Virus record (IMG/VR): IMGVR_UViG_2541047758_000018
Length of the DNA stretch: 34,871 bases
From: a virus
Lineage: Duplodnaviria > Heunggongvirae > Uroviricota > Caudoviricetes
Direction: 5' to 3' (one strand)
This document shows, in pieces, positions 1 to 28,221 of the stretch (position 1 is the first letter of the stretch; every line of letters starts with the position of its first letter). The notes beneath the pieces were generated by a model, which did no database searches, had not been told where the DNA came from, and worked only from the letters and a program-made list of their open reading frames with translations. The translations under genes were made by a program, and so were the position numbers.

Positions 1-1260
1 ATGCCAAAACTCACAGATATGCAGATCCGCACATGGATAAAGGCGGGAGACAGATTTGATGGCAAGGCAGACGGCAACGGCCTTTATATTTGCTACCCCA
101 AAAACTACACAGTCCCGTTCTGGCGATTCCGCTATAAGCTCGCAGGAAAGCAGCGGGCTATGGTTATAGGCTCTTACTCCGAACTGTCACTATCAAAAGC
201 CAGAGAAACAGCAAAAGAGCTGTCAGCCAGAGTTGCTCTTGGCTATGACGTAGCAGCAGAGAAACAGGAACGAAAAGCTGAAGCACTGGCAAAAATGGAG
301 GCTGAGAAAAACGCCATGCGTGTTTCAGATCTGGCCTCCGAATACTTCGAGCGCCAGATACTTCCGAGATGGAAACATCCCGATATCCTTCGCCGGAGAA
401 TTGATAAGGATATTAACCCCTGCATTGGGCATATGAAGGTAGAGGACGTTAAGCCACGTCACATTGACGACATGTTGAAAGGTATCGTTGACCGAGGAGC
501 ACCAACGATAGCAACAGATGTATTACGCTGGACACGCCGTATCTTTGACTATGGGATAAAACGCCACGCTCTGGAGATAAACCCTTGTTCAGCGTTTGAA
601 GTATCTGATGCTGGTGGTAAAGAGGTTTCCCGCGACCGTTGGCTAACTCGCGATGAGCTTATCAGGCTATTCGAGGCTATGCGCACCGCAAAAGGATTCA
701 GCCGCCAGAACGAACTGACATTTAAGCTATTGCTGGCACTATGCGTTCGTAAGATGGAGTTATGCGCCGCACGATGGGAAGAGTTTGATTTAGATGGTGC
801 GGTATGGCATTTGCCGGAAGAACGCAGCAAAAACGGAGACCCTATTGATATACCTCTACCTTCCCCAGCCGTTGAATGGTTGAGAGAGCTACACACCTTT
901 TCATGTAATAGCGCATGGGTGCTTCCAGCCAGGAAAATGCAAAACAGAATGATCCCACATATTCAGGAAAGCACTTTACCCGTAGCACTGGCTAAGGTTC
1001 GCGCCGAAATGCCGGATGTGCCTAATTTCACGATTCACGACTTCCGACGCACCGCACGTACTCATTTAGCAGCGTTGGGTGTTGATCCTGTCGTAGCGGA
1101 ACGATGCCTCAATCATCGCATTAAGGGCGTAGAGGGGATTTATAACCGCCATCAGTATTTTGATGAGCGTAAAGCAGCACTGGCACTGTGGGCTGATCTG
1201 CTGGTGGCACTGGAAAGCGGAAAAGACTACAACGTAACGCCTCTCAGAAGGGCGAACTAA
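1..1260 (+). CDS. int: P4-type tyrosine integrase (site-specific recombinase), apparently full length (419 aa)
   Basis: N-terminus MPKLTDMQIRTW resembles the P4-integrase N-terminus (MSLTDAKIR... from memory); C-terminal catalytic region HDFRRTARTHLAALGV...NH...GIYNRHQY carries the R/H-x-x-R...Y tyrosine-recombinase signature. It is the first gene of the island, so the att site would lie upstream of the window. Confidence 0.9.
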   Translation: MPKLTDMQIRTWIKAGDRFDGKADGNGLYICYPKNYTVPFWRFRYKLAGKQRAMVIGSYSELSLSKARETAKELSARVALGYDVAAEKQERKAEALAKMEAEKNAMRVSDLASEYFERQILPRWKHPDILRRRIDKDINPCIGHMKVEDVKPRHIDDMLKGIVDRGAPTIATDVLRWTRRIFDYGIKRHALEINPCSAFEVSDAGGKEVSRDRWLTRDELIRLFEAMRTAKGFSRQNELTFKLLLALCVRKMELCAARWEEFDLDGAVWHLPEERSKNGDPIDIPLPSPAVEWLRELHTFSCNSAWVLPARKMQNRMIPHIQESTLPVALAKVRAEMPDVPNFTIHDFRRTARTHLAALGVDPVVAERCLNHRIKGVEGIYNRHQYFDERKAALALWADLLVALESGKDYNVTPLRRAN

Positions 1261-1355
1261 CTGAATAGATTGAGCCTAGCTCGACGGGGCGAAAAGCGGG
1301 AAGCCTTACCGCCTGGCTCAATCACAAAATAAGGCGCAGCGTAAAAGGTGACGCA

Positions 1356-2321
1356 ATGAACGACTCTCATGAAACAACTGCGGTGCATAGAAATTTATGG
1401 CAGGAATCAGGTATCCCACCTTTGGACTACTGCACGATAGAGCGAGCATCAAAATTATTAAATTGTGAAATTGATGATATATGGCATTGGAAAGATAGAC
1501 TACATATAGACTTTTATGTCTATGCTGACTTTCTTGATTTCATTGAAGCTGATGCCACCATCCACTTCAAAAAAGATGCTGATTTTATAACTGATTTATT
1601 ACTTATGTACCCAGAAGAAGTAAGGTTTACATTTCCTTTTCTTATTACCAGCGCAAGCAACGAAGTTTATATCCCAGCATCTGAAAGCGGTGCTTATGAG
1701 CTATTTTATGCACATAAACCACTGACAGTTGAAGACAGAGACAATAAAAATGTTTTTGAACAAATTGGCAAAAACTCTTTTATTGTAAGAAAATCAATTG
1801 CATGTGGATTGTTGCGTGTACGCGGTAGTACAACACGACATTATCATTCACAAGAATGTGGAGAGCCATATGTGCGACTTGAAGCAACATTTGATTGTGA
1901 TCTATATAAATTCAAAATGCAAAGTTCCCAGATTCACCTGAGTAGCCTGTCAGATAAAAACATTTATATAACAAAGGCTGATTTAGAATACCTTCACGAC
2001 GCAAAGGTTAATGGAAGCTTTGACGCAGCTAAGAGCAAAAAACGATACGAAATGGCGGTAGAACAGGAACTAATACCTGAAATAAAAAATAGCAACCATA
2101 ATGCCGAGAGACATGCTGAAAACAGGGAAAAACTTTTCAAATCAGCAATATATCTTTTGTCAAAGTATCCTGATGAATGCCGTGGCAAAAAGAAAGAAAT
2201 AAGCCCTGAGAAGTGGCGGGATTGCATAGTGGCTCATAAAGACGAAATTCCACCGTTAGCAATCACAAATGAAGATGTGATTTTGAGACACTTACGTGCT
2301 GCCGCCAACGGTAAGGGGTAG
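1356..2321 (+). CDS. Hypothetical protein (321 aa), AT-rich cargo gene between integrase and AlpA-family regulator; no domain recognised
   Basis: Long uninterrupted ORF with a possible GGTG Shine-Dalgarno about 9 nt upstream; visibly lower GC than flanking genes; followed by a hairpin plus T-run terminator. I cannot place the protein in a family by eye. Confidence 0.6.
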   Translation: MNDSHETTAVHRNLWQESGIPPLDYCTIERASKLLNCEIDDIWHWKDRLHIDFYVYADFLDFIEADATIHFKKDADFITDLLLMYPEEVRFTFPFLITSASNEVYIPASESGAYELFYAHKPLTVEDRDNKNVFEQIGKNSFIVRKSIACGLLRVRGSTTRHYHSQECGEPYVRLEATFDCDLYKFKMQSSQIHLSSLSDKNIYITKADLEYLHDAKVNGSFDAAKSKKRYEMAVEQELIPEIKNSNHNAERHAENREKLFKSAIYLLSKYPDECRGKKKEISPEKWRDCIVAHKDEIPPLAITNEDVILRHLRAAANGKG

Positions 2322-2336
2322 AGTAGCTAACTATTC

Positions 2337-2367
2337 AGGCACAGTATCATTACTGTGCCTTTTTATT
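2337..2367 (+). terminator. Putative Rho-independent terminator after the cargo gene
   Basis: aggcacagta-tcat-tactgtgcct forms a 10-bp stem, followed by ttttatt. Confidence 0.5.
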
Positions 2368-2386
2368 GTTCATATATGTACAGATA

Positions 2387-2434
2387 CTTCCTCCCGTAAC
2401 GAAGCAACAACTATCGCTAAGAGGTTACGGGAAG
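2387..2434 (+). promoter_or_regulatory. Inverted repeat overlapping the ribosome-binding region of the AlpA-family gene (possible operator or translational control hairpin)
   Basis: cttcctcccgtaac ... gttacgggaag: arms cccgtaac/gttacggg are perfectly complementary, separated by about 23 nt and ending 2 nt before the ATG at 2436. Confidence 0.35.
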
Positions 2435-2435
2435 C

Positions 2436-2639
2436 ATGAACACCGACACTATTCCTACAAAAGGCTATATCAGACGCTTTCGCCTGGCTGAATTGCTGGG
2501 CGTTAGTGTATCCACCATCGACCGTAAAGTAAGAAACGGTTCACTACCACGTCCGGTAAAGCTGGGAGAAAAAATAACTGCGTTTGATGCGGTTGAGATT
2601 CACAACTGGCTGGCAGAACGCCGCGGGAAGGTGGCCTGA
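2436..2639 (+). CDS. AlpA-family (phage excisionase/transcriptional regulator-like) HTH protein, 67 aa
   Basis: Small protein with the pattern RFRLAELLGVSVSTIDR...LPRPVKLG....F...E...WL typical of AlpA/Xis-like winged-helix regulators; positioned directly downstream of the integrase module as in CP4-57 and PICI-type elements. Confidence 0.75.
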   Translation: MNTDTIPTKGYIRRFRLAELLGVSVSTIDRKVRNGSLPRPVKLGEKITAFDAVEIHNWLAERRGKVA

Positions 2640-3070
2640 TGGAAAAGAAAAACCGCCCATTACAGGCGGCTAATTCAGATATTCGCGTATCTGATGTTAC
2701 GCCCCTTACAAAATCCCTTCAAGAACCAAAGCGCACACCGAAAAAGCATCGTGCCCGAGTCTATATGCTGCGTACTGGTATAGAGGGATGGACAGAAAAT
2801 GACATTCTTCGCTACTGCCGTCTGTCTTCTGGTCGTAACTATGCAACAGAGTTAGAACGCCAGCTTGGAATCACTCTGGAGCGTATCGACGAAAAGAATC
2901 CTGATGGTATCGGAACACACCTTCGCTACCGTTTCTCCTGCCGTGGTGATGTTCTGAAAGTGATCACTCATGTTAACCATCTTGCGAACATAAATGATCA
3001 CAACGGACTTTCTCAGCAGGAAATTGCCGACATTCTGAAACTCTACCCGGACGCGTTTAACGCCGCCTAA
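2639..3070 (+). CDS. Hypothetical protein (143 aa), start overlaps stop of the upstream gene
   Basis: ORF in operon arrangement (ATGA-type overlap with the AlpA-family gene); no recognisable motif. Confidence 0.5.
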   Translation: MEKKNRPLQAANSDIRVSDVTPLTKSLQEPKRTPKKHRARVYMLRTGIEGWTENDILRYCRLSSGRNYATELERQLGITLERIDEKNPDGIGTHLRYRFSCRGDVLKVITHVNHLANINDHNGLSQQEIADILKLYPDAFNAA

Positions 3071-3082
3071 CGGAGACTGAAA

Positions 3083-3916
3083 ATGAACATCGAAAAAAGC
3101 AGATTAATTTCTGAGGCCGCCCCTCATCTGAACGCCTCTCTGGGCACAATTAACGGTAATGAATTTGCCGCAATTGTCCCGGTTATTCCTGGTCATATCG
3201 GTGGGCGTGAAACCAATATTGTTAGCGCAAAAGCGTTACACAAAGCGTTGGGCGTGGGAAAAGACTTCTCTACATGGATCGCTGATCGCATCTCTGAATA
3301 TGACTTCACCATTGGGCACGATTACTCAGTCCATAAAACAATTTCCCCAAATTTGGGGAAAAGCCCGAATGGCGCGGCTTACAGCAAGATTAAGCACTCT
3401 GGCAGACCCGGCAAAGACTATCTGTTAAGTGTCGGAATGGCGAAAGAACTGGCAATGATCGAACGCAATGATCAGGGTCGCGCTATCCGTCGTTATTTCA
3501 TCCAGTGCGAGGAAGAATTACAGCGTAGCGTTCCTGAAATCGCCGCCCGCTATCGTCGCCAGCTAAAAGCCCGTATCAGTGCCGCAAACAACTTTAAGCC
3601 AATGTGCGATGCGCTGAACATGGCCCGTGCCGAGCAGGGGAAAACGACGCAGCAACACCACTACACAAACGAGAGCAATATGATTTCTCGTATCGTTCTT
3701 GGTGGGCTAACTGCTAAGCAGTGGGCGCGGATAAATGGCTATTCTGGCGAACCTCGCGACCATATGAACGCAGAACAGCTTGAGCACCTCTCATATCTCG
3801 AAAGCACCAATATCACGTTAATTGATATGGGCATGGAATATGAGCAGCGCAAAGGAGAACTCACCCGCCTGTCGCAACGCTGGCTCGCTAAGCGTCTGGA
3901 GGCGGTCAATGTCTAA
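3083..3916 (+). CDS. Phage antirepressor-like protein (AntA/AntB-type N-terminal domain)
   Basis: N-terminal segment VSAKALHKALGVGKDFSTWIADRISEYDFTIGHDY matches the antirepressor/KilA-type pattern (..F.NWI..RI..Y.F.EG.D..); 277 aa is typical. Confidence 0.55.
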   Translation: MNIEKSRLISEAAPHLNASLGTINGNEFAAIVPVIPGHIGGRETNIVSAKALHKALGVGKDFSTWIADRISEYDFTIGHDYSVHKTISPNLGKSPNGAAYSKIKHSGRPGKDYLLSVGMAKELAMIERNDQGRAIRRYFIQCEEELQRSVPEIAARYRRQLKARISAANNFKPMCDALNMARAEQGKTTQQHHYTNESNMISRIVLGGLTAKQWARINGYSGEPRDHMNAEQLEHLSYLESTNITLIDMGMEYEQRKGELTRLSQRWLAKRLEAVNV

Positions 3917-4091
3917 GCCAACAGGAACACCACAACCACAAAAACGCTACAAAGATGCCCACGGAGCACTCGTTACTGTCGAAAGCGTGTCTCACAACCG
4001 AGTGACGTTTTATCGCGACGGGTATCAATCGCCATGCGTACAACCGCTGGCACGTTTCATGAAGGAGTTCGCGGAGGTTAACAAATGCTAA
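3909..4091 (+). CDS. Small hypothetical protein (60 aa); start chosen at internal ATG 3909 rather than ORF-track start 3822
   Basis: ATG at 3909 overlaps the stop of the antirepressor-like gene (ATGTCTAA), typical of translational coupling; the longer ORF-track version would overlap the upstream gene by about 95 nt. Confidence 0.4.
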   Translation: MSKPTGTPQPQKRYKDAHGALVTVESVSHNRVTFYRDGYQSPCVQPLARFMKEFAEVNKC

Positions 4092-4522
4092 CCGCCCAGA
4101 AGAAGATATTTTCACTGGCTGGTATATCGCCAAAATCCAGCAATATGACAGCAAAGTCTGGCATTAATACAGCAGATACAAGCAAAGTTTATCATTTTCT
4201 GGTGGTAGGAGCGGATGCCTTAACTATGTCAGAAATTACGGTCGATGGTGTTAGCATTGAGAAGGTCAGCGGCTGCGCCAGAGAATTTCTGGTCGTAGAT
4301 GACCTGTTCTGCTCGCGTAGTGACTCCACAAAAATCTTCGTCCACGCGCGTGACGTTAACGAAATGAGCGCGATGTACTGTGCTTCTGGTTCTTCCAATA
4401 GTGAGTTTTCGGAGTCCATAAAAAAGAGCTTGCCGTTATGCGGCAACACGGTTTATGGTTATAAGGCACCTCATAAAACGGGTGCCGGGTTTCGCAGCCC
4501 GGAAATGTACGAGGCGACACAT

Positions 4523-4544
4523 GACGCGCCGAGCGTCTTTTTTT
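4523..4544 (+). terminator. Putative Rho-independent terminator
   Basis: gacgc-gccga-gcgtc hairpin followed by ttttttt. Confidence 0.45.
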
Positions 4545-4550
4545 GTGCCG

Positions 4551-4590
4551 TTAGCCAGACTCACACTTTTTTCAGTGATGTGGTTATAAT
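4551..4590 (+). promoter_or_regulatory. Putative sigma70 promoter for the early (primase) operon
   Basis: Perfect -10 hexamer tataat at 4585-4590 with a weak -35 candidate about 17-18 bp upstream; followed by a roughly 150-nt hairpin-rich leader and an aaggagg Shine-Dalgarno before the ATG at 4747. Confidence 0.35.
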
Positions 4591-4746
4591 CCGCGTCGCT
4601 TGCAAAATTATGGTGGGCTGGACAGGGCAGCCGAAAGGCTGGCCGGTTTCCTTGTACGCCGGTACTGCGAACTCTGTTCAGTCCACCACCAGCGAGTTTC
4701 GCAGCTCCGGTGGTGGGAAGAATTCCCAGTACAAGGAGGCTGCCAC

Positions 4747-4941
4747 ATGCTGGCTACTACCCCTACCCAAAAACCGCAATTTATCTGGATTATCGCCGCA
4801 GTTCGCCGCGATTGCCCGACAATTACCGCCAAAATTCATCATATTGCTGCCGAGTCTGAACGCGATGCTCGCCGTTCTCTGGTGCGCGATCACGTCTGCT
4901 TTTTTGCTGGTCGTATCCGCATGGAGGTGGCACATGATTAA
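4747..4941 (+). CDS. Small protein (64 aa), possibly Icd/Kil-like (host cell-division inhibitor-like), first gene of early operon
   Basis: Strong Shine-Dalgarno aaggagg 7 nt upstream of ATG 4747; protein MLATTPTQKPQFIWIIAAVRRD...ARRSLVRDHVCFFAGRI resembles Icd-like small proteins as I remember them. Preferred over the 355-aa ORF 4085-5152 that spans it in another frame. Confidence 0.4.
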   Translation: MLATTPTQKPQFIWIIAAVRRDCPTITAKIHHIAAESERDARRSLVRDHVCFFAGRIRMEVAHD

Positions 4942-5144
4942 AACCTACGATGTGCATATGGACCCCCTCGAACGCACAAGCCAGATCATCACACTGACAG
5001 AAGTGATTAATGACATTCTGGTGAGCAACTCTCCCTCACGAGACGAAAAACTGAAGGCGTTACTCGCGATATTGGATCTCGCCGTTCGTGACGTTCATTT
5101 CCTGCTGGAAGGTGGCGAAATGCCGGTAAAAACGGGGGCAACCA

Positions 5145-5339
5145 ATGAATAACTCAATCAATACCCCTCGCCTTACGTCCGCACTTCAATTAATCGAGCA
5201 AGCAGCGGCTGTCCTGCTTGCTGTCAGTCTTTCGGCTGAAGAAATGGATGCTGCTGATGTCGTGGATGCGATTAAAGCGTGCTCATCTTTGGTTAACGAT
5301 GCCCGTGCAGAGCTGGTAATTCTTGGGGGTGAAAAATGA
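5145..5339 (+). CDS. Small hypothetical early protein (64 aa)
   Basis: Part of a chain of small ORFs with overlapping stop/start codons leading to the primase gene. Confidence 0.5.
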   Translation: MNNSINTPRLTSALQLIEQAAAVLLAVSLSAEEMDAADVVDAIKACSSLVNDARAELVILGGEK

Positions 5340-5599
5340 ATATCAACTTAATTTATCGTCATCCGTGTGAGCTGGAAATTGAATCATTGCTGGGGCGCGA
5401 AGAGCCATATCCAGACACATTCACTCCCGCAGATTGCGCGACTGAACGGCTTACCAGAGCGCGCACAGGTCTGGTTCATGTGATGAATGAGATTATTCCC
5501 TCGGTGGGAGGGGAACAGGCGACAGTAATCAATAGCTGGCTACAAAAAGTTACCTTTCTGATAGATATCAGTTTAATCGATGTGGAGAGTGCGAAATGA
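5336..5599 (+). CDS. Small hypothetical early protein (87 aa)
   Basis: Start overlaps the upstream stop (ATGA); same operon chain. Confidence 0.5.
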   Translation: MNINLIYRHPCELEIESLLGREEPYPDTFTPADCATERLTRARTGLVHVMNEIIPSVGGEQATVINSWLQKVTFLIDISLIDVESAK

Positions 5600-5817
5600 C
5601 CAACATCCAGCTCATTGAAGCGCAATGTCGCATCGAACAGGTTCAGACTGTTTTAGGGTTCTGGCTTGAAGGGGCCAGCCCAAGCAACAGAGACAAGTTA
5701 ATGATTGGCGCGGTTATGTCACTGCTCAATGGCGTACCAGAAGCTATTCAGGAAGCAGACGAATTGTTGGGCAAATATGAGTTACAGAATCATTCAGGCG
5801 AGGCGAAACATGAATAA
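5596..5817 (+). CDS. Small hypothetical early protein (73 aa)
   Basis: Start overlaps the upstream stop; same operon chain. Confidence 0.5.
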   Translation: MTNIQLIEAQCRIEQVQTVLGFWLEGASPSNRDKLMIGAVMSLLNGVPEAIQEADELLGKYELQNHSGEAKHE

Positions 5818-6412
5818 TTTCTTAACTTTCCATGCAGAAGCAACGCCTGACGGCGTAAACATCATGCACCGCAGCAACGATGGCATGACAGAACGCGTTG
5901 AGACCGTCTCATATATTGATGCCGTAAATCGTCTGGATGCCGGGGATTATGACGATAAACCAGATGAAGGTATGTCAATACATCTCGCTATAGCCGATGG
6001 CGGCAACCAGGGATATTTCGATTACACATCACAGCATAACGTCATTATGTGGAGATGGTTGATCGCAACAGTATTCATGCTGGAAATGAGAGAGGAAAAC
6101 GGCACTGTCAGCATCATTGATGATACTGGCAATCCTTCCGAAGTGGCTGTTTATTCCAACGGCATCGTCGCCATGCCGCTGTATCCAGTAGCAGAGCGCC
6201 TCGCTATGGCAAACAACATTGAGGGCGCGATGATAGAACGTTTTGGCATCGAGTCTGGCACAGAACGCGCCATCATTTTCTACAGAGCCATGATGGATGT
6301 GGAACAAGGAACACTAACTCCATTTGGTCGTGAAACGCTTGCTGAACTTCACAACAGCTTTATAGCTGAACTGAATGAAAACGGCATGCCATCGGAACCA
6401 GTGACGCACTGA
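5810..6412 (+). CDS. Hypothetical protein (200 aa); start chosen at 5810 rather than ORF-track start 5705
   Basis: ATG at 5810 overlaps the stop of the upstream gene (ATGAATAA); the upstream extension would overlap the previous CDS by more than 100 nt. Confidence 0.5.
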   Translation: MNNFLTFHAEATPDGVNIMHRSNDGMTERVETVSYIDAVNRLDAGDYDDKPDEGMSIHLAIADGGNQGYFDYTSQHNVIMWRWLIATVFMLEMREENGTVSIIDDTGNPSEVAVYSNGIVAMPLYPVAERLAMANNIEGAMIERFGIESGTERAIIFYRAMMDVEQGTLTPFGRETLAELHNSFIAELNENGMPSEPVTH

Positions 6413-6422
6413 GGATGGAGCC

Positions 6423-6764
6423 ATGATTACTAAAAATTTCCGACTGAATGCGCTGGCAAATAAGTATGCGTCGGCACTGTATAACCACATTACCTCCACC
6501 AGCGGCGGGGACTATTTCATGGTTGATGCGGACGGCGAGGCCGTCCGTGTGGAAATCGTCAATGGAGTAAAAGGCGTTCGCAGCCTGATCGATAGCTACA
6601 CACTGGCAGCCATGAAAGTGTTCTACCCGCAGTGGGAAACCGTGGGGATCGAGCTTCTTGAACGTTGCGTCACTAAGGACGGATTGACTGACGTCGGGCG
6701 TGAGATATGGCAAAGCATGGTTAATGACATGGGCGCAACTGTAGCGGGAGGTTCTCATGCGTGA
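6423..6764 (+). CDS. Hypothetical protein (113 aa)
   Basis: ORF with ggatggag Shine-Dalgarno-like sequence upstream; operon position. Confidence 0.5.
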   Translation: MITKNFRLNALANKYASALYNHITSTSGGDYFMVDADGEAVRVEIVNGVKGVRSLIDSYTLAAMKVFYPQWETVGIELLERCVTKDGLTDVGREIWQSMVNDMGATVAGGSHA

Positions 6765-7128
6765 AAATGCAGAAATGGCGCTTAGCTCCGCAATCGGAGA
6801 GCAGGTGGCAAAGATTGCTGGTGCTGTGTGGATTCATAACCTTCATTCTACTGGTGAAGAGAAAATGGCAATTCAGACGCCAGAGGGACGCACCATTACT
6901 ACATCTCTGAAGCCGTCAGATGTTTGTGATCTGATTTGCGCATTCATGTACCCAGCAATGAGGACTGTCCACGGCGATAAGTGGAAACTTGCGACAACCG
7001 CTGAATTTGATATGTGGCTAAACAATGATGGCATGCTGACTGATTACGGAATAACCAAGTGGCAGATGCTGGTTAGCCATATCGCAAACGCTATAGACCA
7101 CGTGGGGTACGGTGATGCGAAACATTGA
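6757..7128 (+). CDS. Hypothetical protein (123 aa)
   Basis: Overlaps the upstream gene by 8 nt and the primase gene by 17 nt, typical phage-like coupling. Confidence 0.5.
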   Translation: MRENAEMALSSAIGEQVAKIAGAVWIHNLHSTGEEKMAIQTPEGRTITTSLKPSDVCDLICAFMYPAMRTVHGDKWKLATTAEFDMWLNNDGMLTDYGITKWQMLVSHIANAIDHVGYGDAKH

Positions 7129-9871
7129 TCTTATCCGTCAGGTTATCAGTGCGTCTGAAAACAACTGGCCTCATGTGCTGGGCTGCCTGAACATAAATGT
7201 CCCTGACTCTCCGCGCCGTCATGCTCCCTGCCCTGCATGTGGGGGCAAAGATCGATTCCGATTCGACGACAACGGGCGCGGTAGCTTCATCTGTAATCAG
7301 TGCGGCGCTGGTGATGGGCTGGATTTAATTAAACGCGTAAATAACTGCGACACAACAGAGGCGGCGTTGCTTGCCGCTGATGTTCTGGGTATTGATTACC
7401 GGACAACGGAAACACCAGAAGCCACCAGCCAGAAACGGGAACAACTGGAAACCGAGCGCCAGCGACGCGAACAGGAGCGCCTGAAAAGGGCAGAGAAGGA
7501 CGAACAACAAAGACGGGATACGTTTTCCCGTCAGTTTGATGACATGCGCAGAAAGGCTGTAAACGGCAAATCTGATTATCTGGTTGCGAAAGGGGTAGGT
7601 GATTTTACATTCCCCGTGTTGCCCGATGGATCTCTGTTGCTGGCGCTGGTGGATAAATCCGGCGCAGTCACAGCAGCACAGACTATTACCTCACATGGTG
7701 AAAAAAGACTCCTGACAGGTTCAGCAAAGCGAGGGGCATATCACGCCATAAACGCACCAGAAACAACACAGAGCATCTTAATCGCAGAAGGGCTGGCAAC
7801 GGCATTATCTGCCCATTTAATTCGTCCAGAGGCGCTGACAGTGGCGGCGATTGATGCCGGGAACCTGTTATATGTCGCCCAGGTACTGCGGGATAAATTT
7901 CCTTCAGCACAAATCATCATTGCTGCGGATAACGACCACAGCGAAGGAAGACAAAACACGGGGAGAATAGCAGCAGAAAAAGCAGCTTTATCTGTTTCTG
8001 GATGGGTGGCATTACCCCCGACAGATCACAAAGCAGACTGGAATGATTACCACCAAAAACACGGCATTAAATGCGCCACAGAAGCGTTCAATAAGTCAAT
8101 GTACCAACCACAGGGTAATGGCGTGAAACAGGAGCCACAGACCATTGAGGGAAGCGATTTTAAGGTTATGGATACCGACCCACTGAAACCAAGAATAGAA
8201 AGCCGCGAGGATGGTATTTATTGGGTATCTCCGAGAGCTGACAGCCAGAGTGGAGAAATCATCAATAACGAAAGCTGGTTATGTTCTCCGTTAAGCGTTA
8301 TCGGTACTGGCAGAGACGATAAAGACCAGTATCTCATTCTTCGCTGGCTGTCGTTTGGTTCTGAAACGCCGACAACCGCTGCCATTCCACTGGCTGATAT
8401 TGGTGAACGTGAAGGATGGCGCACACTTAAAGCTGGTGGGGTAAATGTCACGACCAAAAGCAGCCTCAGAGCAATACTGGCAGACTGGCTACAACGCAGT
8501 GGCTCTCGTGAATTGTGGCGTGTTGCTCATGCCACTGGCTGGCAATGCGGAGCGTACATCATGCCTGATGGGGAAATCATCGGAACACCTGAAAATCCTG
8601 TGCTGTTCAGCGGGAGAAGCTCAGCCGCAGCCGGATATACCGTCTCAGGGAGCGCGAAAAGCTGGCGTGATAACGTGGCGCGTCTGGCCTTTGGTAACTA
8701 TTCAATGATGACCGGGATCGGCGCAGCACTGGCAGCGCCATTGATTGGGCTGGTGGGCGCTGACGGGTTCGGCATTCATTTCTATGAGCAGTCGAGCGCA
8801 GGTAAGACCACCACGGCAAACGTGGCGAGCAGCTTATACGGCAACCCTGATTTACTGCGGCTGACGTGGTACGGAACCGCGCTGGGGCTGGCAAATGAAG
8901 CTGCCGCCCACAATGACGGACTAATGCCGCTTGATGAAGTTGGTCAGGGCGCTGATCCTGTCAGTGTTTCACAGTCTGCCTATGCGTTATTTAACGGTGT
9001 AGGGAAACTGCAAGGCGCTAAAGATGGTGGAAACCGGGATCTAAAACGCTGGCGTACAGTGGCAATCAGCACCGGAGAAATGGATTTAGAAACATTTATC
9101 GCTACTTCCGGGCGAAAAACCAAAGCCGGGCAACTGGTGCGACTGCTGAATATTCCGTTGAGTAAAGCAGTACGCTTTCACGATTACCAGAACGGAAAAC
9201 AGCACGCAGACGCACTGAAAGACGCTTACCAGCATCACCACGGCGCGTCCGGGCGTGAGTGGATTAAATGGCTGGCAGACCACCAGCAACAGGCTATTAA
9301 AACTGTTCGTGATTGCGAAAGCAGATGGAGAAGCCTGATCCCATCCGATTATGGTGAGCAGGTTCACCGTGTAGCCGCGCGATTTGCCATTCTGGAGGCC
9401 GCATTGTTGTTAGGCGAGGTTGTAACAGGCTGGGATGCTCAGACATGCCGTGATGCGATACAGCACAGCTATAACGCATGGTTGCGCGAGTTCGGCACAG
9501 GTAACAAAGAGCATCAGCAGATTATTGAACAAACGGAGGCATTTCTTAATGCCTATGGGCTTAGCCGTTTTGCACCATTTCCATACAGCCCGGCAGATTT
9601 GCCCATCAAAGATTTAGCCGGATACCGTCAGCGTGGAGAACATGACGAAAGTCCAATGATTTTCTACACATTCCCGGCCACATTTGAAAAGGAGATCGCA
9701 TGTGGTTTCAACGCAAAACAGTTTGCTGAAGTGTTGAAAAAAGCCGGGATGCTAACCCCACCAAACAGCGGTCGTGGATACCAAAGAAAATCACCACGTA
9801 TTCAGGGACGACAAATAAACGTTTATGTACTCAATTACCAGCCAGGAGATTACAACTCATCTGAAGAATGA
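7112..9871 (+). CDS. P4 alpha-like primase-helicase (Zn-ribbon + TOPRIM primase + C-terminal NTPase domain), 919 aa
   Basis: Zinc-ribbon motif PCPACGGKDRFRFDDNGRGSFICNQCGAGDGLDLI; TOPRIM-like acidic motifs ILIAEGLATAL and IIIAADNDHSEG; C-terminal region with Walker-A-like YEQSSAGKTT. Confidence 0.9.
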   Translation: MMRNIDLIRQVISASENNWPHVLGCLNINVPDSPRRHAPCPACGGKDRFRFDDNGRGSFICNQCGAGDGLDLIKRVNNCDTTEAALLAADVLGIDYRTTETPEATSQKREQLETERQRREQERLKRAEKDEQQRRDTFSRQFDDMRRKAVNGKSDYLVAKGVGDFTFPVLPDGSLLLALVDKSGAVTAAQTITSHGEKRLLTGSAKRGAYHAINAPETTQSILIAEGLATALSAHLIRPEALTVAAIDAGNLLYVAQVLRDKFPSAQIIIAADNDHSEGRQNTGRIAAEKAALSVSGWVALPPTDHKADWNDYHQKHGIKCATEAFNKSMYQPQGNGVKQEPQTIEGSDFKVMDTDPLKPRIESREDGIYWVSPRADSQSGEIINNESWLCSPLSVIGTGRDDKDQYLILRWLSFGSETPTTAAIPLADIGEREGWRTLKAGGVNVTTKSSLRAILADWLQRSGSRELWRVAHATGWQCGAYIMPDGEIIGTPENPVLFSGRSSAAAGYTVSGSAKSWRDNVARLAFGNYSMMTGIGAALAAPLIGLVGADGFGIHFYEQSSAGKTTTANVASSLYGNPDLLRLTWYGTALGLANEAAAHNDGLMPLDEVGQGADPVSVSQSAYALFNGVGKLQGAKDGGNRDLKRWRTVAISTGEMDLETFIATSGRKTKAGQLVRLLNIPLSKAVRFHDYQNGKQHADALKDAYQHHHGASGREWIKWLADHQQQAIKTVRDCESRWRSLIPSDYGEQVHRVAARFAILEAALLLGEVVTGWDAQTCRDAIQHSYNAWLREFGTGNKEHQQIIEQTEAFLNAYGLSRFAPFPYSPADLPIKDLAGYRQRGEHDESPMIFYTFPATFEKEIACGFNAKQFAEVLKKAGMLTPPNSGRGYQRKSPRIQGRQINVYVLNYQPGDYNSSEE

Positions 9872-9895
9872 GCTTCTTCATGTGCGTAGAAAAGG

Positions 9896-10010
9896 TGTTG
9901 GTTCAGTTGGTTCAGTTGGTTCAATTTGTAAAGAGTATTGTTTTATAAGGATTTTATTCTTTTTATTGAACCAACACTGAACCAACAACACGGTATTTTG
10001 AACCAACACA
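9896..10010. repeat. Putative replication origin: three tandem GGTTCAGT-type iterons, AT-rich spacer, three inverted GAACCAAC iterons
   Basis: gtgttggttcagttggttcagttggttcaa (9896-9925), then about 40 bp of AT-rich sequence, then ttgaaccaacactgaaccaacaacacggtattttgaaccaacaca (9966-10010); sits immediately 3' of the primase gene, as ori/crr does in P4 and as ori does in PICIs. Confidence 0.6.
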
Positions 10011-10634: not shown

Positions 10635-11096
10635 ATGGAACTAAAATTTATTGATAACCCTGTGCGATTACAGGCCTTTCTTAACGAGCCAGGCAATACC
10701 GAAAATATTGTTGAGCCGGGGCACACGTACTACATCAAGCCTGATGCGGTATATCTCGGCATCTACGAAGGATTAGTGCTGGCTGGCGTTCATGAAGTGC
10801 GTAACTTCTGGCATAGCGTTGTTGAATGCCATGCGGTGTACGACCCCGGATTCCGTGGTGAATATGCACTGCAAGGGCATCGATTATTCTGCAAATGGCT
10901 TCTCGAAAACTCACCATTCCTTAACAGCATCACTATGGTTCCTGACACCACGAAATACGGACGGGCAATTATCCGTTTGCTTGGCGCTACCCGTGTTGGT
11001 CACCTTGATGATGCTTATATCAGATGTGGTAAACCCGTCGGCGTAACGCTTTATCAGTTAACTCGGCAACAATATAAGGAATTCAGCGAATGTTAA
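10635..11096 (+). CDS. Hypothetical phage-like protein (153 aa), first large gene of ejection-protein-like operon
   Basis: ORF 16 nt downstream of the small regulator-like ORF; no motif recognised; position is analogous to P22 gp14 or T7 gp13 ahead of the ejection proteins. Confidence 0.5.
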   Translation: MELKFIDNPVRLQAFLNEPGNTENIVEPGHTYYIKPDAVYLGIYEGLVLAGVHEVRNFWHSVVECHAVYDPGFRGEYALQGHRLFCKWLLENSPFLNSITMVPDTTKYGRAIIRLLGATRVGHLDDAYIRCGKPVGVTLYQLTRQQYKEFSEC

Positions 11097-11767
11097 TTAC
11101 CCATATAGCTCATAAACATCTCAATCGTGCCGTATACGAAAAAGGCGGTGATGGTGGTGCCTCTAAAGCTCAGGCGAAGGCCCAGCAGCAGGCAATTGAT
11201 TTGCAGCGCGAGCAGTGGAATACGGTGATGAATAATCTCAAGCCGTATGCAGAAGTCGGATTGCCTGCTTTACAACAACTGCAAGGACTGATGACTCTGG
11301 AAGGGCAGAATAAAGCCGCGAATGATTTCTTTGGTTCTGGTTTATATAAAACACAGGCAGATCAGGCCCGTTATCAGAACCTTGTCTCAGCAGAAGCTAC
11401 CGGGGGGCTTGGCTCAACAGCTACCAGTAACCAGTTATCTTCCATTGCGCCCATGCTTTATAACAATTGGCTCAGTGGGCAAATGCAAAATTATGGAAAC
11501 CTGCTAAATGTCGGGATGAATGCGGCATCAGGGCAGGCAACGGCAGGGCAAAACTACGCCAATAATACCGGACAACTCTTGCAGGGGCTTGGCGCTATTC
11601 GTGCAGGTCAGGCGCAGCAGCCATCCAGTCTTGCGCGTGGTATTGGTGGGGCAGCATCAGGCGCTTTAGCGGGTGCGCAACTTGGTTCCGTTGTTCCTGG
11701 AATAGGAACTGCGGCCGGCGCTATTGGTGGTGGGCTTATTGGTCTTGTTGGGGGGCTTGGATTCTAA
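11090..11767 (+). CDS. Glycine-rich protein (225 aa) with hydrophobic Gly/Ala C-terminal tail; podovirus ejection/internal-virion-protein-like
   Basis: C-terminus GIGGAASGALAGAQLGSVVPGIGTAAGAIGGGLIGLVGGLGF is membrane-insertion-like; Q/N-rich body; operon-coupled to neighbours. Confidence 0.5.
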   Translation: MLITHIAHKHLNRAVYEKGGDGGASKAQAKAQQQAIDLQREQWNTVMNNLKPYAEVGLPALQQLQGLMTLEGQNKAANDFFGSGLYKTQADQARYQNLVSAEATGGLGSTATSNQLSSIAPMLYNNWLSGQMQNYGNLLNVGMNAASGQATAGQNYANNTGQLLQGLGAIRAGQAQQPSSLARGIGGAASGALAGAQLGSVVPGIGTAAGAIGGGLIGLVGGLGF

Positions 11768-13086
11768 TGGCGACATGGCAACTTGGCGGGCTGCCTAGCA
11801 TGGCACCGCAAAATGATAATGCTCCTCGTTCTTCCGTTCCTCAGCCTGTGCAGTATCAGCAGCAGCCAAACGTAGGTTTAATGGCGCTACAGGGGCTAAG
11901 AGGCGTTGCTGAGATTAATCAGCAGGCGCAAATTTCCCAGCAGTTAAAAGAATATCAGGCACGGTTGGGTAGTGCGGTAGCTAATAATGATCGTGTTGGC
12001 GTGCAGAAGTTAATGGCCCAGTATCCCCAGTTTATGGCTGATTCTCAAAAACAGATGGGATTCATTGATGCTGAGCAAAATCGACAGACCGCTGACGCTG
12101 CCATGAATCTGCGTCTTGCGTCACAAACTGGAGATCCACTGACCATGCAGAAGGCCATTCAGCAGGCAAATCCAGTATTACAGCGATTTGGTCTTCCTGC
12201 TGAAGAGGTTTATCAGTCTTGGCAGAATGACCCACAGGAATTCAACAGAATCACTGACCTCATCCACCTCCATGCTGATCCAAATAGTTACTTTAGTGTT
12301 CAAGAGAAGCAGCAAGGGCAGAGCATTGCACAGCAGAACGCAGATACATCCGCATATAATGCTCAGGTTAATGCGGAACAGGGTAATCGACGTCTCGATA
12401 TGGAGCAGTTCAAAGTCCTATCCGATAACCAACTACGCACGAGAGAAATGGTTCTGAAAGCACGACTTGGACGTGCTCAAAATGACATCGAGAGAGACAA
12501 GCTCAATGCTGAACTGAGCAAGGTACAGCAGGCGAAAGTGGAGAAGATGAACGATAAAATTAATACTGTTGCAGGTAACATCGACTCCTTGAACTCTGCG
12601 CTTGAAGTGGGTCATGAACTGGCGGGAATTGTAGGGAAACATCCTTCGGCCGTTACCCGCTCGCAGAACTATAACCCCCTGACGCTGGGGTTTGGATTCC
12701 TTCCTGATGTAGCAGAAGACACACGAAGCCTACGCGCCAAAGCTGATGAATACAACCTAAAGGTTATTCTGCCTAGCCTCAAAGGGACTTTTGGCTCTAA
12801 CCCAACCGAAGGGGAAAGGGCTGCCCTTATGCAATCTCAAAATGGCATTAAGTCAGCAACCAGCAATGAGGCATTTTTGCGAGAGTTGAATAAAGCGCAG
12901 GACGTAATTATTCGAATGCAGAAACGACAGATTGCCGGGCTCGGTATTCCTGTAACCAAATCTAAGGACGAAGAAACTGATACCAAAATGCTGTTGCAGG
13001 ATCCTTCACTAGTTAAGGATTATGTGACCGCACATGGCTATCTGCCGGAAAGTTACTATCAGGCAAAACTTAAGGGATGGCAATGA
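11767..13086 (+). CDS. Gln-rich coiled-coil-like protein (439 aa); ejection/internal-virion-protein-like
   Basis: ATG overlaps the upstream stop (TAATGG); composition and size resemble the middle ejection protein of podoviruses (P22 gp20 / T7 gp15 class). Confidence 0.5.
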   Translation: MATWQLGGLPSMAPQNDNAPRSSVPQPVQYQQQPNVGLMALQGLRGVAEINQQAQISQQLKEYQARLGSAVANNDRVGVQKLMAQYPQFMADSQKQMGFIDAEQNRQTADAAMNLRLASQTGDPLTMQKAIQQANPVLQRFGLPAEEVYQSWQNDPQEFNRITDLIHLHADPNSYFSVQEKQQGQSIAQQNADTSAYNAQVNAEQGNRRLDMEQFKVLSDNQLRTREMVLKARLGRAQNDIERDKLNAELSKVQQAKVEKMNDKINTVAGNIDSLNSALEVGHELAGIVGKHPSAVTRSQNYNPLTLGFGFLPDVAEDTRSLRAKADEYNLKVILPSLKGTFGSNPTEGERAALMQSQNGIKSATSNEAFLRELNKAQDVIIRMQKRQIAGLGIPVTKSKDEETDTKMLLQDPSLVKDYVTAHGYLPESYYQAKLKGWQ

Positions 13087-15414
13087 TGGCACAACTGACA
13101 GAAAAACAGAAAGCCTATTCCCGTCATCTCGATGAAAAATATGGTTTCCCATCAGGGACGATGGAAACATTAGTTGGCAATGAATCTAGTGGTAACGGAA
13201 GTGCCGAGTCACCGAAAGGAGCTAGAGGATTTGCTCAACTGATGCCCTCAGTAATGAGTGATGCTGGTTATCGTGGAACAGATCCGCGCTCACTGCCATT
13301 TGAAAAGCAAATGGATATCGCAGCAAACCATCTCAATAAAGGAATGAAGCGATTTGGTGATATAGGTATGGCATTGGCTGGGTATAATTCTGGCTATGCT
13401 CGTATTAATGCCGTCAGAAACGGTAAATCTACACTGCCAGATGAAACGGCTAATTACGTAAGTAAATTTGCAGATGCTGGAATAATCCCTGATGACAGTG
13501 AAATCTTGCAGTTTGCACAAACCAGTCAACATCGCAATCTTCAGCAGCCTGACTACTCAGAGCTTGATAAAGAAATCTCTCAGGTGGGAGATATTTCTGC
13601 ATGGGAAGCAAAACGTCAGCAATTTAAGAACATAGAAGCAGGACTACCAACAGCCAGTTCATGGGAGCAGAAAAGAGCTCAGTTTCTCGCCGATGAAAAT
13701 GCCGGGGAACCGCAGCAGCAAGTAGCCAAGTCTAACCTTAATCCTGAGATGGAATATCTTTCGCCAGGACTGAAAGCTGCGCCAGAGCAGATGGCCAGAG
13801 GGATTGCTAATATACCGTTTGATGTAATGGACGCAGGCGTGGGGGTAGTCAATGCGGCGCAATCAGCCGGAGCATGGGCAGCTCAGAAGCTTGGTGTGGG
13901 TGATGGCACATACACGCCCATATCACCTGTCTTTCGCCCAGTAGACCAACCTACAGATCCATACGCGCAGGCTGGTGAGCAGCTAGCACCTTACCTTATT
14001 ACAGGATTAGGTGCAGGAAAGGCAGCTACCGCAGCTTCTTCAGTTGCCAACGCTCCACGTGCTGAACGTGCGGCCACAAAGGTGGCTAGTATGTTGGCAG
14101 AAAACCTGCCAGGTACATTGGTGAACGCCCAAAAGAACGGGCAGATCAGCCCAGAAGACCTAGCAAAAGAGACAGGTATTGGCCTAGCAGGATCGCTAGG
14201 AGCACGCGCTTTAATAAAGAGCGGACAGACAGCCAGTGACGTAATGCGAGATGTATTGCGGAGTAATACAAATCAATCAGGCCATGTGTTAGGGGCAGCA
14301 AATACTCTGGAAACCGCCAATGATGTATCGAAAGCAGCGCGTTCTGCCGTAGGCCGAGAGCATATCGCATCGCAGGCATCAAACGTCAGAGATGATGTCG
14401 CTAAGGCGGCGAAAATCACTGGTATTAATATCAACACCCTGACGCCTGGAATGCGCTCAGGTAGTCGTGGAATTGCCCAAGCAGAAGGTGTTCTGGCATC
14501 AACTCCTGGGAATGTTCAGGATGCTCACCTTACGGCCTTCAATGAAATATCCTCAAAGTTGAATAAGCAGTTGTCTGATTTCGGTGCTGAGTCTGGAAGC
14601 GCATCAGAAAAAAGCGCAGCAATTAAAGAGCGCATCATCGCGAGCCTCAGTGATATGAAAACAGCAGAGAATATGGCATGGGCAGAACTGCGAAGCACGA
14701 TGCCACGCGAAAGGATGAAAATGAGTAATGGGATGGCTGTCGTCCAAGCAGAAAAAGCAGCCAATGTTCCACTCAGCCCGGAGATGAAACAGTTTCAGGC
14801 TGCCAACAACCAAGGTGGCGGCATAACCTTCGACGGGATGAAGGCATGGCGTGCTAAGTTTGCTGATGCTGAACAAGCAAACACCCGGGCAGGTAAGGCC
14901 AATGCCGCCCGGATTGCCGGAGAAATGCGCAGAGCTATCACTGATGACATGCGCATCATGGCTGAAAAAGGAAACTTCCTCACAGAATGGCAGAAAGCTA
15001 ACGATCTCTCTAAAAGTTACATTATCGCCAAACAAAATGCCGAATCTGTTTTTGGTCGAGATCTCGCATCAGACGCTATGGTAAGAAAAGGTGCCGATAC
15101 GCTTAAGGCATCCGCAAACACTGGAACGGGAGCTTTTCACCGTCTTATCTCCGCGCTGCCGGAAGCAGAACGCCAACCTGCAATAGCATCTATTCTTCAG
15201 CATGCTGTGGCGCAGGGAGAGAAGGGAGGAATCGGTGAAGAGTCAGGTATCCAGTATTTTGCCAAGCTCATGACCCAGCAGAATGTAAACGCCATCAGTC
15301 GTCATGCGCCAGATCTCGGTAGAATGATGAAAGAGTTCGGTGTACTCGCTAAAGCCAGTACCAGACCGCAGCGATACGTAGAGCGCACGGGAAGAACAAC
15401 TGAGGCTCTCAAAA
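13077..15414 (+). pseudogene. Phage internal-virion/ejection-type protein with N-terminal lytic transglycosylase (SLT) domain, 3'-truncated by IS911-like insertion (native part about 779 codons)
   Basis: SLT signature ESSGNGSAESPKGARGFAQLMP ... ALAGYNSGY near the N-terminus. The ORF reads through the IS end at 15415 and terminates inside the IS at 15569, so the last 51 codons are IS-derived. Confidence 0.7.
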
Positions 15415-15444
15415 TGAAGTGGTCAACAAAAACTGGCCACCGAG

Positions 15445-16628
<1,184 letters not shown>

Positions 16629-22074: not shown

Positions 22075-22509
22075 ATGAGTAAGAAGAAAATTTCTTTTGA
22101 AAATGAAGAGTTCATTACTTACCGGGCATTACTTCTGAGTATTGACTTTGTTAAAAAACTGGTTATAGAAATGTCTGATGAAGATTTAAATAAGGTTAAG
22201 GAAAACTTTGACATAGCTATTCAGCAACGTAATGAGCGAAAGGAAAATATGAAAGCTATCAAATCACTCATGGATGAACATGGTATATCTCTGGAAGATT
22301 TTTATTGTGAATTTGGCAAAAAATCACAGGCAGGCAGAAAAAGTGTGTCAGGAAGGCATAAATACGAGTATGACGATAACGGTAAAAGAATGTACTGGAA
22401 TGGACAAGGACGTCGGCCTAAGGCCATAGCAGAGGCTATAAAAGCCGGAGGTTCTCTTGATGATTTTCTTATATCTCAGGAAGTATCATCTGGTCCTGAT
22501 TATGAATAA
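22075..22509 (+). CDS. H-NS family nucleoid-associated protein paralog (144 aa), island-borne
   Basis: C-terminal DNA-binding signature YEYDDNGKRMYWNGQGRRPKAIAEAIKAGGSLDDFLI matches H-NS Y.Y.DENGE.KTWTGQGRTP..I.....LDDFLI; N-terminal coiled-coil-like region; AT-rich gene. Confidence 0.8.
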   Translation: MSKKKISFENEEFITYRALLLSIDFVKKLVIEMSDEDLNKVKENFDIAIQQRNERKENMKAIKSLMDEHGISLEDFYCEFGKKSQAGRKSVSGRHKYEYDDNGKRMYWNGQGRRPKAIAEAIKAGGSLDDFLISQEVSSGPDYE

Positions 22510-23595: not shown

Positions 23596-24849
23596 TTACT
23601 TCAGACAGTGAGTTTCCCATTCCTTGACTGCAAATGTATCCATCATACCTGAAATATAGTCAACCACTGCTCGTTTTTTGCTGATTTTAAATATATAGGA
23701 ATCTGGTTGGGGTAAGGTGAATTTAAGTTCAGGAGGCAGAAATTTATAATTCTCTCCTTCATTGTAAAAGTCATATAAATCCCTGATTATTTTATTTCCC
23801 CTGAACTCATAGGTGAGGATATTACGTTTTCGCATGATGACTTTAAAGAGAAGTTTTTTGAGCCCTTCGGATAACGCATTCAGTTTCCCGAATCCCAGTT
23901 CCTGAAAACCATTCAGGTTCGTTACTACAGAAATATCTGCAACGAGGCGATTGACAATATTTGAAGTTAACTCCTTGCGGAATATGATGGCAAATTCTTC
24001 TGAGGTTTTCAGTAAGTTAGCCTGAAAAGCGGTGTTTCTCGACTGAGTAACGATTTCCCTGAACTGTTCCCTCGCTCCCCGGAATTCGTCAGAAATCTGA
24101 AACTCATATTCAATATCTTCAATCGTGACCATGTTCCTGCTAAGGGCATCTTCCAGGTCATGCGCGGCATAGGCAATCTCATCCGCGAGATCCATTATCT
24201 GCGCATCAATCGTTTTCTCTCCGGGATTCAGATCGAGCTGATTTTCAGCAAGCAGGTTAATGTAAAAATAGTAATCATCATCATAAATGAACTTGCCGGC
24301 AGTAGCTGCAGCGCGGGGGATGGGATACTTAACAACCGAAAGTAAACTACGGTGAGTCAGATTTAATCCGTTGCAGTATGAAAATTTCTTCTCCAGTTTT
24401 CTCAGGATACGTAGCGCCTGTGCATTGCCTTCATAGCCGCCGATTTCTTCAGACAGTTCATTAAGCAGTTTTTCACCGGAATGACCGAAAGGAGGATTTC
24501 CGATGTCATGCGCCAGCGCTGCCAGTTCAACCACCACCGGGTTAACCAGTTTGAGGTCTGACGCGATACTTCGGGCGATCTGAGCAACCTCAAGACTGTG
24601 CGTTAATCTGTTTCTGTTGAATTTTTCAGGATCAATTTCAAAAAGTTGCATCTTTCCCTGCAGCCTGCGAAATGATGATGAATACAGAATACGCGCATAA
24701 TCCCGTTGATAATTATCCCGGCTTCTTGTTTCACCATCGGGGGACGGGTGCTCTCTGGTATCAGCAAGCGCACTGATAAGTTTTTGTTCCTGCTCTTGCG
24801 CAAATTCTTTTAATTCATTGCAGTACATATTTCTTCCTTTCTGGAGCAT
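23596..24849 (-). CDS. dGTP triphosphohydrolase-family HD-domain protein (short form, 417 aa) - probable antiphage dNTP-depleting dGTPase
   Basis: Aligns by eye to E. coli Dgt motifs: FRRLQGKMQLF (IRRLQQKTQVF), RLTHSLEVAQIARSIA, LAHDIGNPPFGHSGE, YEGNAQALRIL, MDLADEIAYAAHDLEDA, DYISGMMDTFA; shorter than housekeeping Dgt (505 aa). Confidence 0.85.
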   Translation of the reverse strand: MLQKGRNMYCNELKEFAQEQEQKLISALADTREHPSPDGETRSRDNYQRDYARILYSSSFRRLQGKMQLFEIDPEKFNRNRLTHSLEVAQIARSIASDLKLVNPVVVELAALAHDIGNPPFGHSGEKLLNELSEEIGGYEGNAQALRILRKLEKKFSYCNGLNLTHRSLLSVVKYPIPRAAATAGKFIYDDDYYFYINLLAENQLDLNPGEKTIDAQIMDLADEIAYAAHDLEDALSRNMVTIEDIEYEFQISDEFRGAREQFREIVTQSRNTAFQANLLKTSEEFAIIFRKELTSNIVNRLVADISVVTNLNGFQELGFGKLNALSEGLKKLLFKVIMRKRNILTYEFRGNKIIRDLYDFYNEGENYKFLPPELKFTLPQPDSYIFKISKKRAVVDYISGMMDTFAVKEWETHCLK

Positions 24850-28219: not shown

Positions 28220-28221
28220 TA

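Follow-up and report, generated by a model that had tools for sequence, protein, structure and literature searches.

Known satellite systems and the setting of the locus

Satellites are emerging as rich stores of new antiviral genes, which they are known to hold in variable accessory regions (PMC9122126, PMC11364771, PMC13586616). The described hotspots (psu-int in P4; the 5', 3' and pri-adjacent sites of PICIs, e.g., Tai) are variable slots between conserved backbone genes, in which single AT-rich genes with no assigned function are swapped between near-identical elements (PMC9122126, PMC11364771, PMC13586616). Gram-negative PICIs have been proposed to follow a four-zone layout, Integration/Bro/Replication/Late (PMC10111431). 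One PICI validated by experiment is EcCIMP1, which the P22-like phage Kapi1 induces and transfers (PMC11773190). No repressor or sensor is known in Gram-negative PICIs, and neither the helper-encoded inducer of alpA nor the helper switch for this gene is known (PMC6092414). Stl of SaPIs and Rpr of Gram-positive PICIs are satellite proteins that adjoin int, have an N-terminal HTH-type domain and are transcribed divergently from the operon that they regulate; the remainder of these proteins is extremely divergent and sets helper specificity. PIME1 elements have a regulator between a P4-type integrase gene and alpA, which is LuxR-type, divergently oriented and essential for excision (bioRxiv 10.64898/2026.01.12.698999).

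We analysed a 34.9-kb stretch of DNA (34,871 nucleotides; hereafter the window) in which a gene, ORF321, lies between int and alpA. The features of this slot are as follows.

1..1260, + strand: P4-type tyrosine integrase gene (int), left flank of the slot; Pfam Arm-DNA-bind_3, Phage_int_M and Phage_integrase
1261..1355, + strand: int-ORF321 spacer with a stem (about 1268-1323, without a T-run) and the Shine-Dalgarno sequence AAGGTG (1345-1350)
1356..2321, + strand: ORF321, an intact ORF with a Shine-Dalgarno sequence, deviant GC and family members
2337..2368, + strand: hairpin terminator (stem 2337-2360) and T-run, from sequence; homologous stem-loop in relatives
2367..2382, no strand assigned: palindrome TGTTCATATATGTACA between the terminator and alpA, from sequence
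2393..2431, + strand: alpA leader hairpin (CCCGTAAC...GTTACGGG) enclosing the alpA Shine-Dalgarno sequence AAGAGG (2419-2424)
2436..2639, + strand: gene of an AlpA-family HTH regulator (alpA), right flank of the slot; Pfam Phage_AlpA 2.2e-08

The initial annotation had placed this gene in a satellite, between an integrase gene and an AlpA-family gene. Pfam matches confirm both flanks, and the island is a PICI-type satellite that resembles EcCIMP1 (PMC11773190). Positions 2629-5792 of the window show 98% identity to EcCIMP1, and positions 1-2628 (int, slot and alpA) have no blastn match in it. The int-alpA gap of EcCIMP1 is 427 nt only and is not a remnant of the family gene, as tblastn gave no signal there. 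The module junction at 2629 (alpA stop/start of the gene for a 143-aa protein) is sharp, and in about 24 of 60 evenly sampled E. coli hits the match is limited to 2629-3100. This indicates that whole integration modules (int, slot and alpA) are exchanged at 2629. Since EcCIMP1 is inducible and transferable without the family gene, the family is dispensable for the basic satellite cycle; at the same time, EcCIMP1 differs across the whole integration module, so the absence there says little about dispensability in the present module.

Downstream of alpA, the island encodes the 143-aa protein, an AntA antirepressor, DUF4222, Ash, several small ORFs and a Zn-ribbon/Toprim/DUF927 primase. Beyond the primase gene come DUF2824 and then homologues of P22 gp7, gp20 and a gp16-like ejection protein. 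None of psu, sid and delta was recognisable among the island ORFs scanned. In E. coli EPSSH018, the island lies between yicC and dinD, and the integrase gene adjoins yicC. This layout fits the four-zone scheme, with ORF321 inside the integration zone.

ORF321 and its expression signals

ORF321 is a real, moron-like cassette composed of a Shine-Dalgarno sequence, an ORF and a hairpin terminator. The intact ORF starts with ATG, 5 nt after the Shine-Dalgarno sequence, and encodes a soluble, acidic protein of 321 aa (WP_001000003.1; pI 5.9), which belongs to a family without a name. As claimed in the initial annotation, its GC content is markedly lower than that of int and alpA (0.376 versus 0.49-0.50). 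GC3 of ORF321 is 0.30, and the GC contents of the neighbours are 0.493 (int), 0.500 (alpA), 0.498 (antA) and 0.511 (primase gene). ORF321 is the GC minimum across the island backbone (1-10000), and equally low GC is seen in just 7% of all 966-nt windows over the whole 34.9 kb. The claim that the gene has its own terminator also held: a 10-pair terminator-like hairpin at 2337-2360, with TTTTTATTG directly after it, is scored as an intrinsic terminator. Homologues of this stem-loop after the stop codon are kept in 10 related loci, and three of the ten pairs have compensatory changes; a clear T-run follows the stem-loop only in the window and in the locus of one other allele, L003.

No sigma-70-like promoter was found in the 95-nt int-ORF321 spacer, which makes co-transcription of int and ORF321 plausible. 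Two sigma-70-like sites are both located within ORF321 and are not more than in shuffled sequence. The spacer RNA has a folding energy of -32.4 kcal/mol (z -2.45), and the spacer is kept up to the ATG in islands with other alleles (L004 and L005). ORF321 resembles phage morons in that it is an extra gene between two backbone genes, with deviant GC and its own terminator. It may differ from them in its promoter, as the sigma-70-like scan detected none of its own, and it differs in that its family holds one position over deep divergence, which is beyond a typical moron.

Alleles of the int-alpA slot

A 3.1-kb slot query reaching from int to the start of antA matched 686 of 5426 complete E. coli genomes, and at least 80% of its length was matched in only 75. 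ORF321 with its flanks (at least 80% of window positions 1261-2435) is present in 77 of the 5426 genomes, with an identity of at least 99.6% in all 20 matches listed. The initial annotation had taken the position to be a variable slot, and the slot comparison bears this out. As in satellite variable slots, alternative occupants lie between the same int and alpA: E. coli islands with these flanks carry at least five alternative slot genes. Allele-specific probes against the 5426 complete E. coli genomes gave the following counts.

L003 allele: 316 aa, ORF321-family member, 41/5426 genomes
L004 allele: 281 aa, ORF321-family member, 37/5426 genomes
L005 allele: 293 aa, just a weak N-terminal match to the family, 21/5426 genomes
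L002 allele: 216 aa plus a 470-nt AT-rich spacer, unrelated to the family, 110/5426 genomes

DNA homology among the alleles ends at 1241-1360, exactly at the start codon for L004 and L005, and restarts at 2393 (past the terminator), at 2449, or at 2121 (L003, within the 3' end of the gene). In hhalign comparisons, L004 fell in the ORF321 family with 98.4% probability, L005 gave its weak match at the N-terminus, and L002 was outside. Thus, three of the five E. coli slot alleles (ORF321, L003 and L004) are family members, and L002 and L005 are not demonstrably full members. The occupants are not a set of unrelated systems that are also found in other contexts. No occupant of the slot matched a known defence family, and those other than ORF321 gave no hit in PADLOC-DB 2.0.

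The slot thus resembles the satellite hotspots described above in its variability between conserved backbone genes and in the swapping of single AT-rich genes. It differs from them in its place (int-alpA, in an island with no recognisable psu, sid or delta), in that three of five sampled occupants are alleles of one family sharing end modules, and in that no int-alpA occupant matches a defence family. In other words, a variable slot of a satellite is a known setting; what differs is this slot, its occupation by a single family with shared end modules, and a protein with no known domain beyond a generic winged helix.

E. coli K-12 also has a gene in the corresponding slot. In CP4-57, yfjH (2757644-2758600, 318 aa) occupies the same position between a P4-type int and alpA, and YfjH is of the same size and likewise uncharacterised. 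However, yfjH is on the opposite strand and has no detectable homology to ORF321; YfjH was ruled out as a homologue by an hhalign probability of 0.4%. A literature search on WP_001000003.1, yicC/dinD islands and yfjH found nothing relevant.

A large family at one position

A word-indexed search found 48 Enterobacterales relatives of about 315 aa, none of which has a name or a Pfam domain. When 1.84 billion representatives were searched with a profile, the family grew to 600 clusters (50% identity) at E <= 1e-3, or 164 at E <= 1e-10, and nearly all of these clusters are 270-350 aa long. On present sequence comparisons, ORF321 is an allele within a very large family rather than one among unrelated cargo genes. 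A tblastn search of the phage collection gave no match.

In each of the sampled loci whose flank was long enough (about 27), the family gene precedes the alpA/primase module. The order in these loci is integrase, family gene, AlpA/HTH_17, and DUF927 or D5 primase. The gene is directly 3' of a P4-type integrase gene in all but two of them; the exceptions are L013, which has no integrase within the upstream 6 kb, and the viral locus L032, in which no integrase was detected. The position is held even where the integrase is just 23-29% identical and AlpA is undetectable by tblastn. One locus, L038, is a 21.8-kb circular 'plasmid' of K. pneumoniae (CP031371.2), which shows the arrangement of the other loci. 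It carries a family member, AlpA, an antirepressor and DUF4222 in order, and is probably an excised satellite island deposited as a non-mobilizable plasmid.

Stand-alone defence genes tend to move among contexts. In the sampled loci, the family was seen solely in the integrase-alpA context, and this suggests that its role is tied to the integration/regulation module of the island. The initial annotation had held that a position conserved in all related elements, with the same GC as the neighbours, would speak against its cargo reading. The position is indeed conserved family-wide, which in part speaks against that reading, but the GC still deviates and two of the five E. coli occupants are not demonstrably full family members.

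Three modules of the protein

An AF2 model of ORF321 was built on the family alignment (pLDDT 74). Together with the alignment, it divides the protein into three parts.

1413..1526, + strand, aa 20-57: N-terminal winged helix, beta-alpha-alpha-beta, MerR/Xis/AlpA-like fold (predicted structure)
1527..2084, + strand, aa 58-243: acidic, beta-rich, fast-evolving middle, which keeps G151 (GLW-type) and a DLxIT strand (aa 203-206)
2085..2318, + strand, aa 244-321 (about 75 residues): basic, helical, conserved C-terminal module

The family is thus made of three modules, a diversifying front and middle and a strongly conserved tail. The median identity of 46 relatives to ORF321 is 78% over the C-terminal module, whose motif is ERHAxNRE...YPDECRG...EISPEKWRDC...VILRHLR, but falls to 28% over the winged helix and to 12% over the middle. 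In 140 distant representatives, only A31, D41, G151 (GLW), the DLxIT strand and the ER.A..RE / P..C / WA motifs persist. The charge also differs among the modules. The winged helix (aa 18-57) has -3.4 in ORF321 (family median -2 to +1), and its nearly invariant residues, A31 and D41, are not basic; the middle has a family median of -10 to -20, and ORF321 has -8 overall; the C-terminal module has +4 in ORF321, with a pI of 9.2.

In the C-terminal module, amino-acid identity is 62-86%, whereas identity at third-codon positions is 35-52%; dS is saturated and dN is 0.1-0.3. This shows strong purifying selection on the protein. Conservation by DNA-level constraint or by recent recombination or transfer is ruled out, because synonymous sites are saturated. 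In the divergent island L025, the C-terminal module is 82% identical to that of ORF321, versus 29% for Int and 31% for AlpA. The module is conserved independently of its neighbours, an indication that its partner varies less than the proteins encoded by the island itself. When its profile was run against a big protein set, only four fragments were returned, so no alternative architectures of the module were found.

The initial annotation had recognised no domain in ORF321. This stands for Pfam, PHROGs, PADLOC and NCBIfam, none of which gave anything significant for ORF321 or its relatives, but the predicted structure shows the N-terminal winged helix. No match was found in Pfam at E <= 0.001 for the 140 family representatives, in the PDB by sequence search with the C-terminal profile, or in BFVD by Foldseek structure search. 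The middle and the C-terminal module have no relative in Pfam, NCBIfam, PHROG, PADLOC or PDB. Weak matches to DUF6137 and DUF1140 were below their cut-offs, and a PADLOC match to PDC-S31 (E 0.002, 15.5 bits) was rejected because only one of 23 family members shows it. A Cys/His zinc site in the C-terminal module was dropped since the residues are not conserved in distant members, and a HEPN-like or toxin motif was dropped since none is present. ORF321 has no hydrophobic segment, and neither an effector nor an enzymatic or membrane domain could be recognised.

The predicted N-terminal fold, beta-alpha-alpha-beta(-beta), is that of MerR/Xis/AlpA (HTH_17-type) winged helices and matches the excisionases Pukovnik Xis, GIsul2 AlpA, TorI and RdfS. 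The ORF321 domain nevertheless differs from MerR/excisionase winged helices, including those of the protein-binding CbpM, RppC and DafA, in several respects. It has no sequence-profile match (no hit of ORF321 to Pfam HTH_17, MerR or Phage_AlpA at E <= 1), the conserved basic DNA-contact residues are absent in the family, the nearly invariant residue of the family is an Asp in the second helix, and about 260 further residues are unrelated.

Region between ORF321 and alpA

The palindrome TGTTCATATATGTACA lies within the segment exchanged in L004, L005 and L002. It is not a LexA box, as its spacing is wrong. At the corresponding place, L003 carries another palindrome, the LexA-box-like TTGTATATCTATACAG (about 2757-2775 of that locus). 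These palindromes may be operators or promoter elements that travel with the slot allele.

Hairpins of other sequence than that of the window occur just upstream of alpA in L005, L006, L013, L015-L018, L025, L029 and L038. The window hairpin around the alpA Shine-Dalgarno sequence is stable, and those of the relatives are apparently compensatory. This suggests that AlpA, the master activator, is under translational or attenuation control.

Possible function of ORF321

We tentatively regard ORF321 as an accessory phage-sensing adaptor for interference or defence, with a rough probability of 0.35. ORF321 would be produced alongside the integrase, both while the island is quiescent and when it enters a new cell. 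Its variable front and middle would act as the specificity part and recognise a fast-evolving component of a phage, either helper or competitor. A winged helix that is neutral to acidic would more likely have a protein as its target than classical DNA sites. The invariant C-terminal module would link recognition to a partner that is itself conserved; since this module changes less than Int, AlpA or primase do, a host machine is the probable candidate. The result would be phage interference or defence. Recombination, either in the conserved flanks or within the conserved part of the gene that encodes the C-terminal module, would swap alleles as cassettes. In this picture, the timing of expression, the sensing, the partner and the effect on phages are inferred.

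Several results argue for this adaptor. The occupants of the slot differ while int and alpA stay the same, and homology breaks at the ATG, past the terminator or in the C-terminal module; GC and GC3 deviate; the hairpin terminator is conserved; conservation is mosaic with arms-race-like divergence; the C-terminal module, with its saturated dS, persists where Int and AlpA diverge; the winged helix and the middle are acidic; EcCIMP1 cycles without the family; and antiviral cargo has precedents in satellites. Against it stand the lack of a defence-family match and of an effector domain, and the strict tie to the integration module. A regulatory or anti-defence role fits the data about as well as a defence or anti-helper function.

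It is possible, if on the unlikely side, that ORF321 senses the helper and controls either excision or the transcription or translation of alpA, as a functional analogue of SaPI Stl/Rpr or the PIME1 LuxR. Its variable part would bind a helper-phage protein, and the alleles would tune the island to different helpers. Consistent with this, the place just upstream of alpA is fixed across very divergent islands, PIME1 elements have their essential regulator between int and alpA, and the predicted N-terminal domain is of the MerR/Xis type. The palindrome before alpA is allele-specific, and the order of hairpin 1, spacer, hairpin 2/Shine-Dalgarno sequence and alpA is kept downstream. A regulator would also fit the lack of a known repressor and of a known alpA inducer in Gram-negative PICIs, and Stl proteins likewise pair an HTH with highly divergent sensing parts (PMC6092414). 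On the other hand, the winged helix is neutral to acidic without conserved basic residues, and the acidity of both winged helix and middle argues against a classical DNA-binding regulator or repressor. ORF321 is co-directional with int and alpA and separated from alpA by a terminator, whereas stl and rpr are divergent from the operon that they regulate and the PIME1 regulator, a LuxR-type protein, is divergently oriented. Stl binds DNA and lacks the invariant C-terminal module of ORF321, and it has no sequence or fold match to ORF321 past a generic HTH. Identical alpA genes with identical upstream leaders are paired with different alleles or with the unrelated 216-aa gene. Finally, the alpA promoters of EcCIMP1 and EcCICFT073 respond to helpers without the ORF321 family (PMC11773190, PMC6092414).

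A more specific proposal, which we consider unlikely, joins the adaptor with such regulation: the family would be a core-adjacent switch of Gram-negative PICI/P4-integrase islands that senses phage or helper. Its hypervariable sensor would determine to which phage the satellite responds, or which one it blocks, and its C-terminal module would dock onto a host machine, e.g., the transcription apparatus. If true, it would be the missing link from helper infection to alpA induction, or a new adaptor-type class of immunity.

We doubt, and think it quite unlikely, that ORF321 is an anti-defence protein of the entry phase, e.g., a DNA mimic or decoy that counters restriction or another arm of host immunity and is co-expressed with the integrase. 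The strongly acidic middle of the family and its rapid diversification, typical of arms-race proteins, would agree with such a function, and the position directly 3' of int makes expression on entry plausible. However, ORF321 itself is just moderately acidic, and it has no similarity in Pfam or PHROGs to ArdA, Ocr, KlcA or other known anti-restriction families. Neither a profile nor a fold of DNA-mimic anti-restriction proteins of the ArdA/Ocr type was found in it, its middle, predicted to be globular and rich in beta strands, does not obviously resemble the helix array of a DNA mimic, and the basic conserved C-terminal module would be left without explanation.

Very unlikely is an accessory role in site-specific recombination, in which ORF321 would assist Int and AlpA as a directionality or architectural factor. 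Its position in the integration zone, between int and the gene of the excisionase-type AlpA, and the match of its N-terminal fold to excisionases speak for this. Yet one integrase pairs with several alleles and with an unrelated gene, the C-terminal module is conserved independently of the divergence of Int and AlpA, the winged helix is acidic, and EcCIMP1 excises without the family (PMC11773190). A small-terminase-like role was rejected, as it has the generic similarity of winged helices as its only support and the position is wrong.

The adaptor thus comes first among these readings. The family is large, unnamed and bound to one island position, and hypervariable specificity parts beside a tail under purifying selection are a clear signature. 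Whether ORF321 is a defence adaptor, a helper sensor or a decoy, the natural allele swaps and the small conserved module give a testable handle.

Other genes of the window

The late zone of the window (10635-15569) contains DUF2824 and homologues of P22 gp7, gp20 and a gp16-like protein with an SLT domain. The satellite thus has its own P22-type ejection proteins. Such proteins were likewise noted for EcCIMP1 (PMC11773190).

At 26298-29304, an aGPT-Pplase3/ADDT gene comes after a thymidylate-synthase-like gene, and a gene with HTH_3 and Peptidase_M78 (IrrE-like) adjoins this pair on the minus strand. Thymidylate-synthase-like and aGPT-Pplase3/ADDT proteins are thymidine hypermodification enzymes, mostly known from phages. 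Low-GC cargo of the window includes genes for an H-NS-like protein (22075-22509) and, on the minus strand, an HD/dGTPase-like protein (23596-24849). A third such gene (31455-34871) encodes a type I restriction HsdR that has DUF4145 at its N-terminus and continues past the end of the window.
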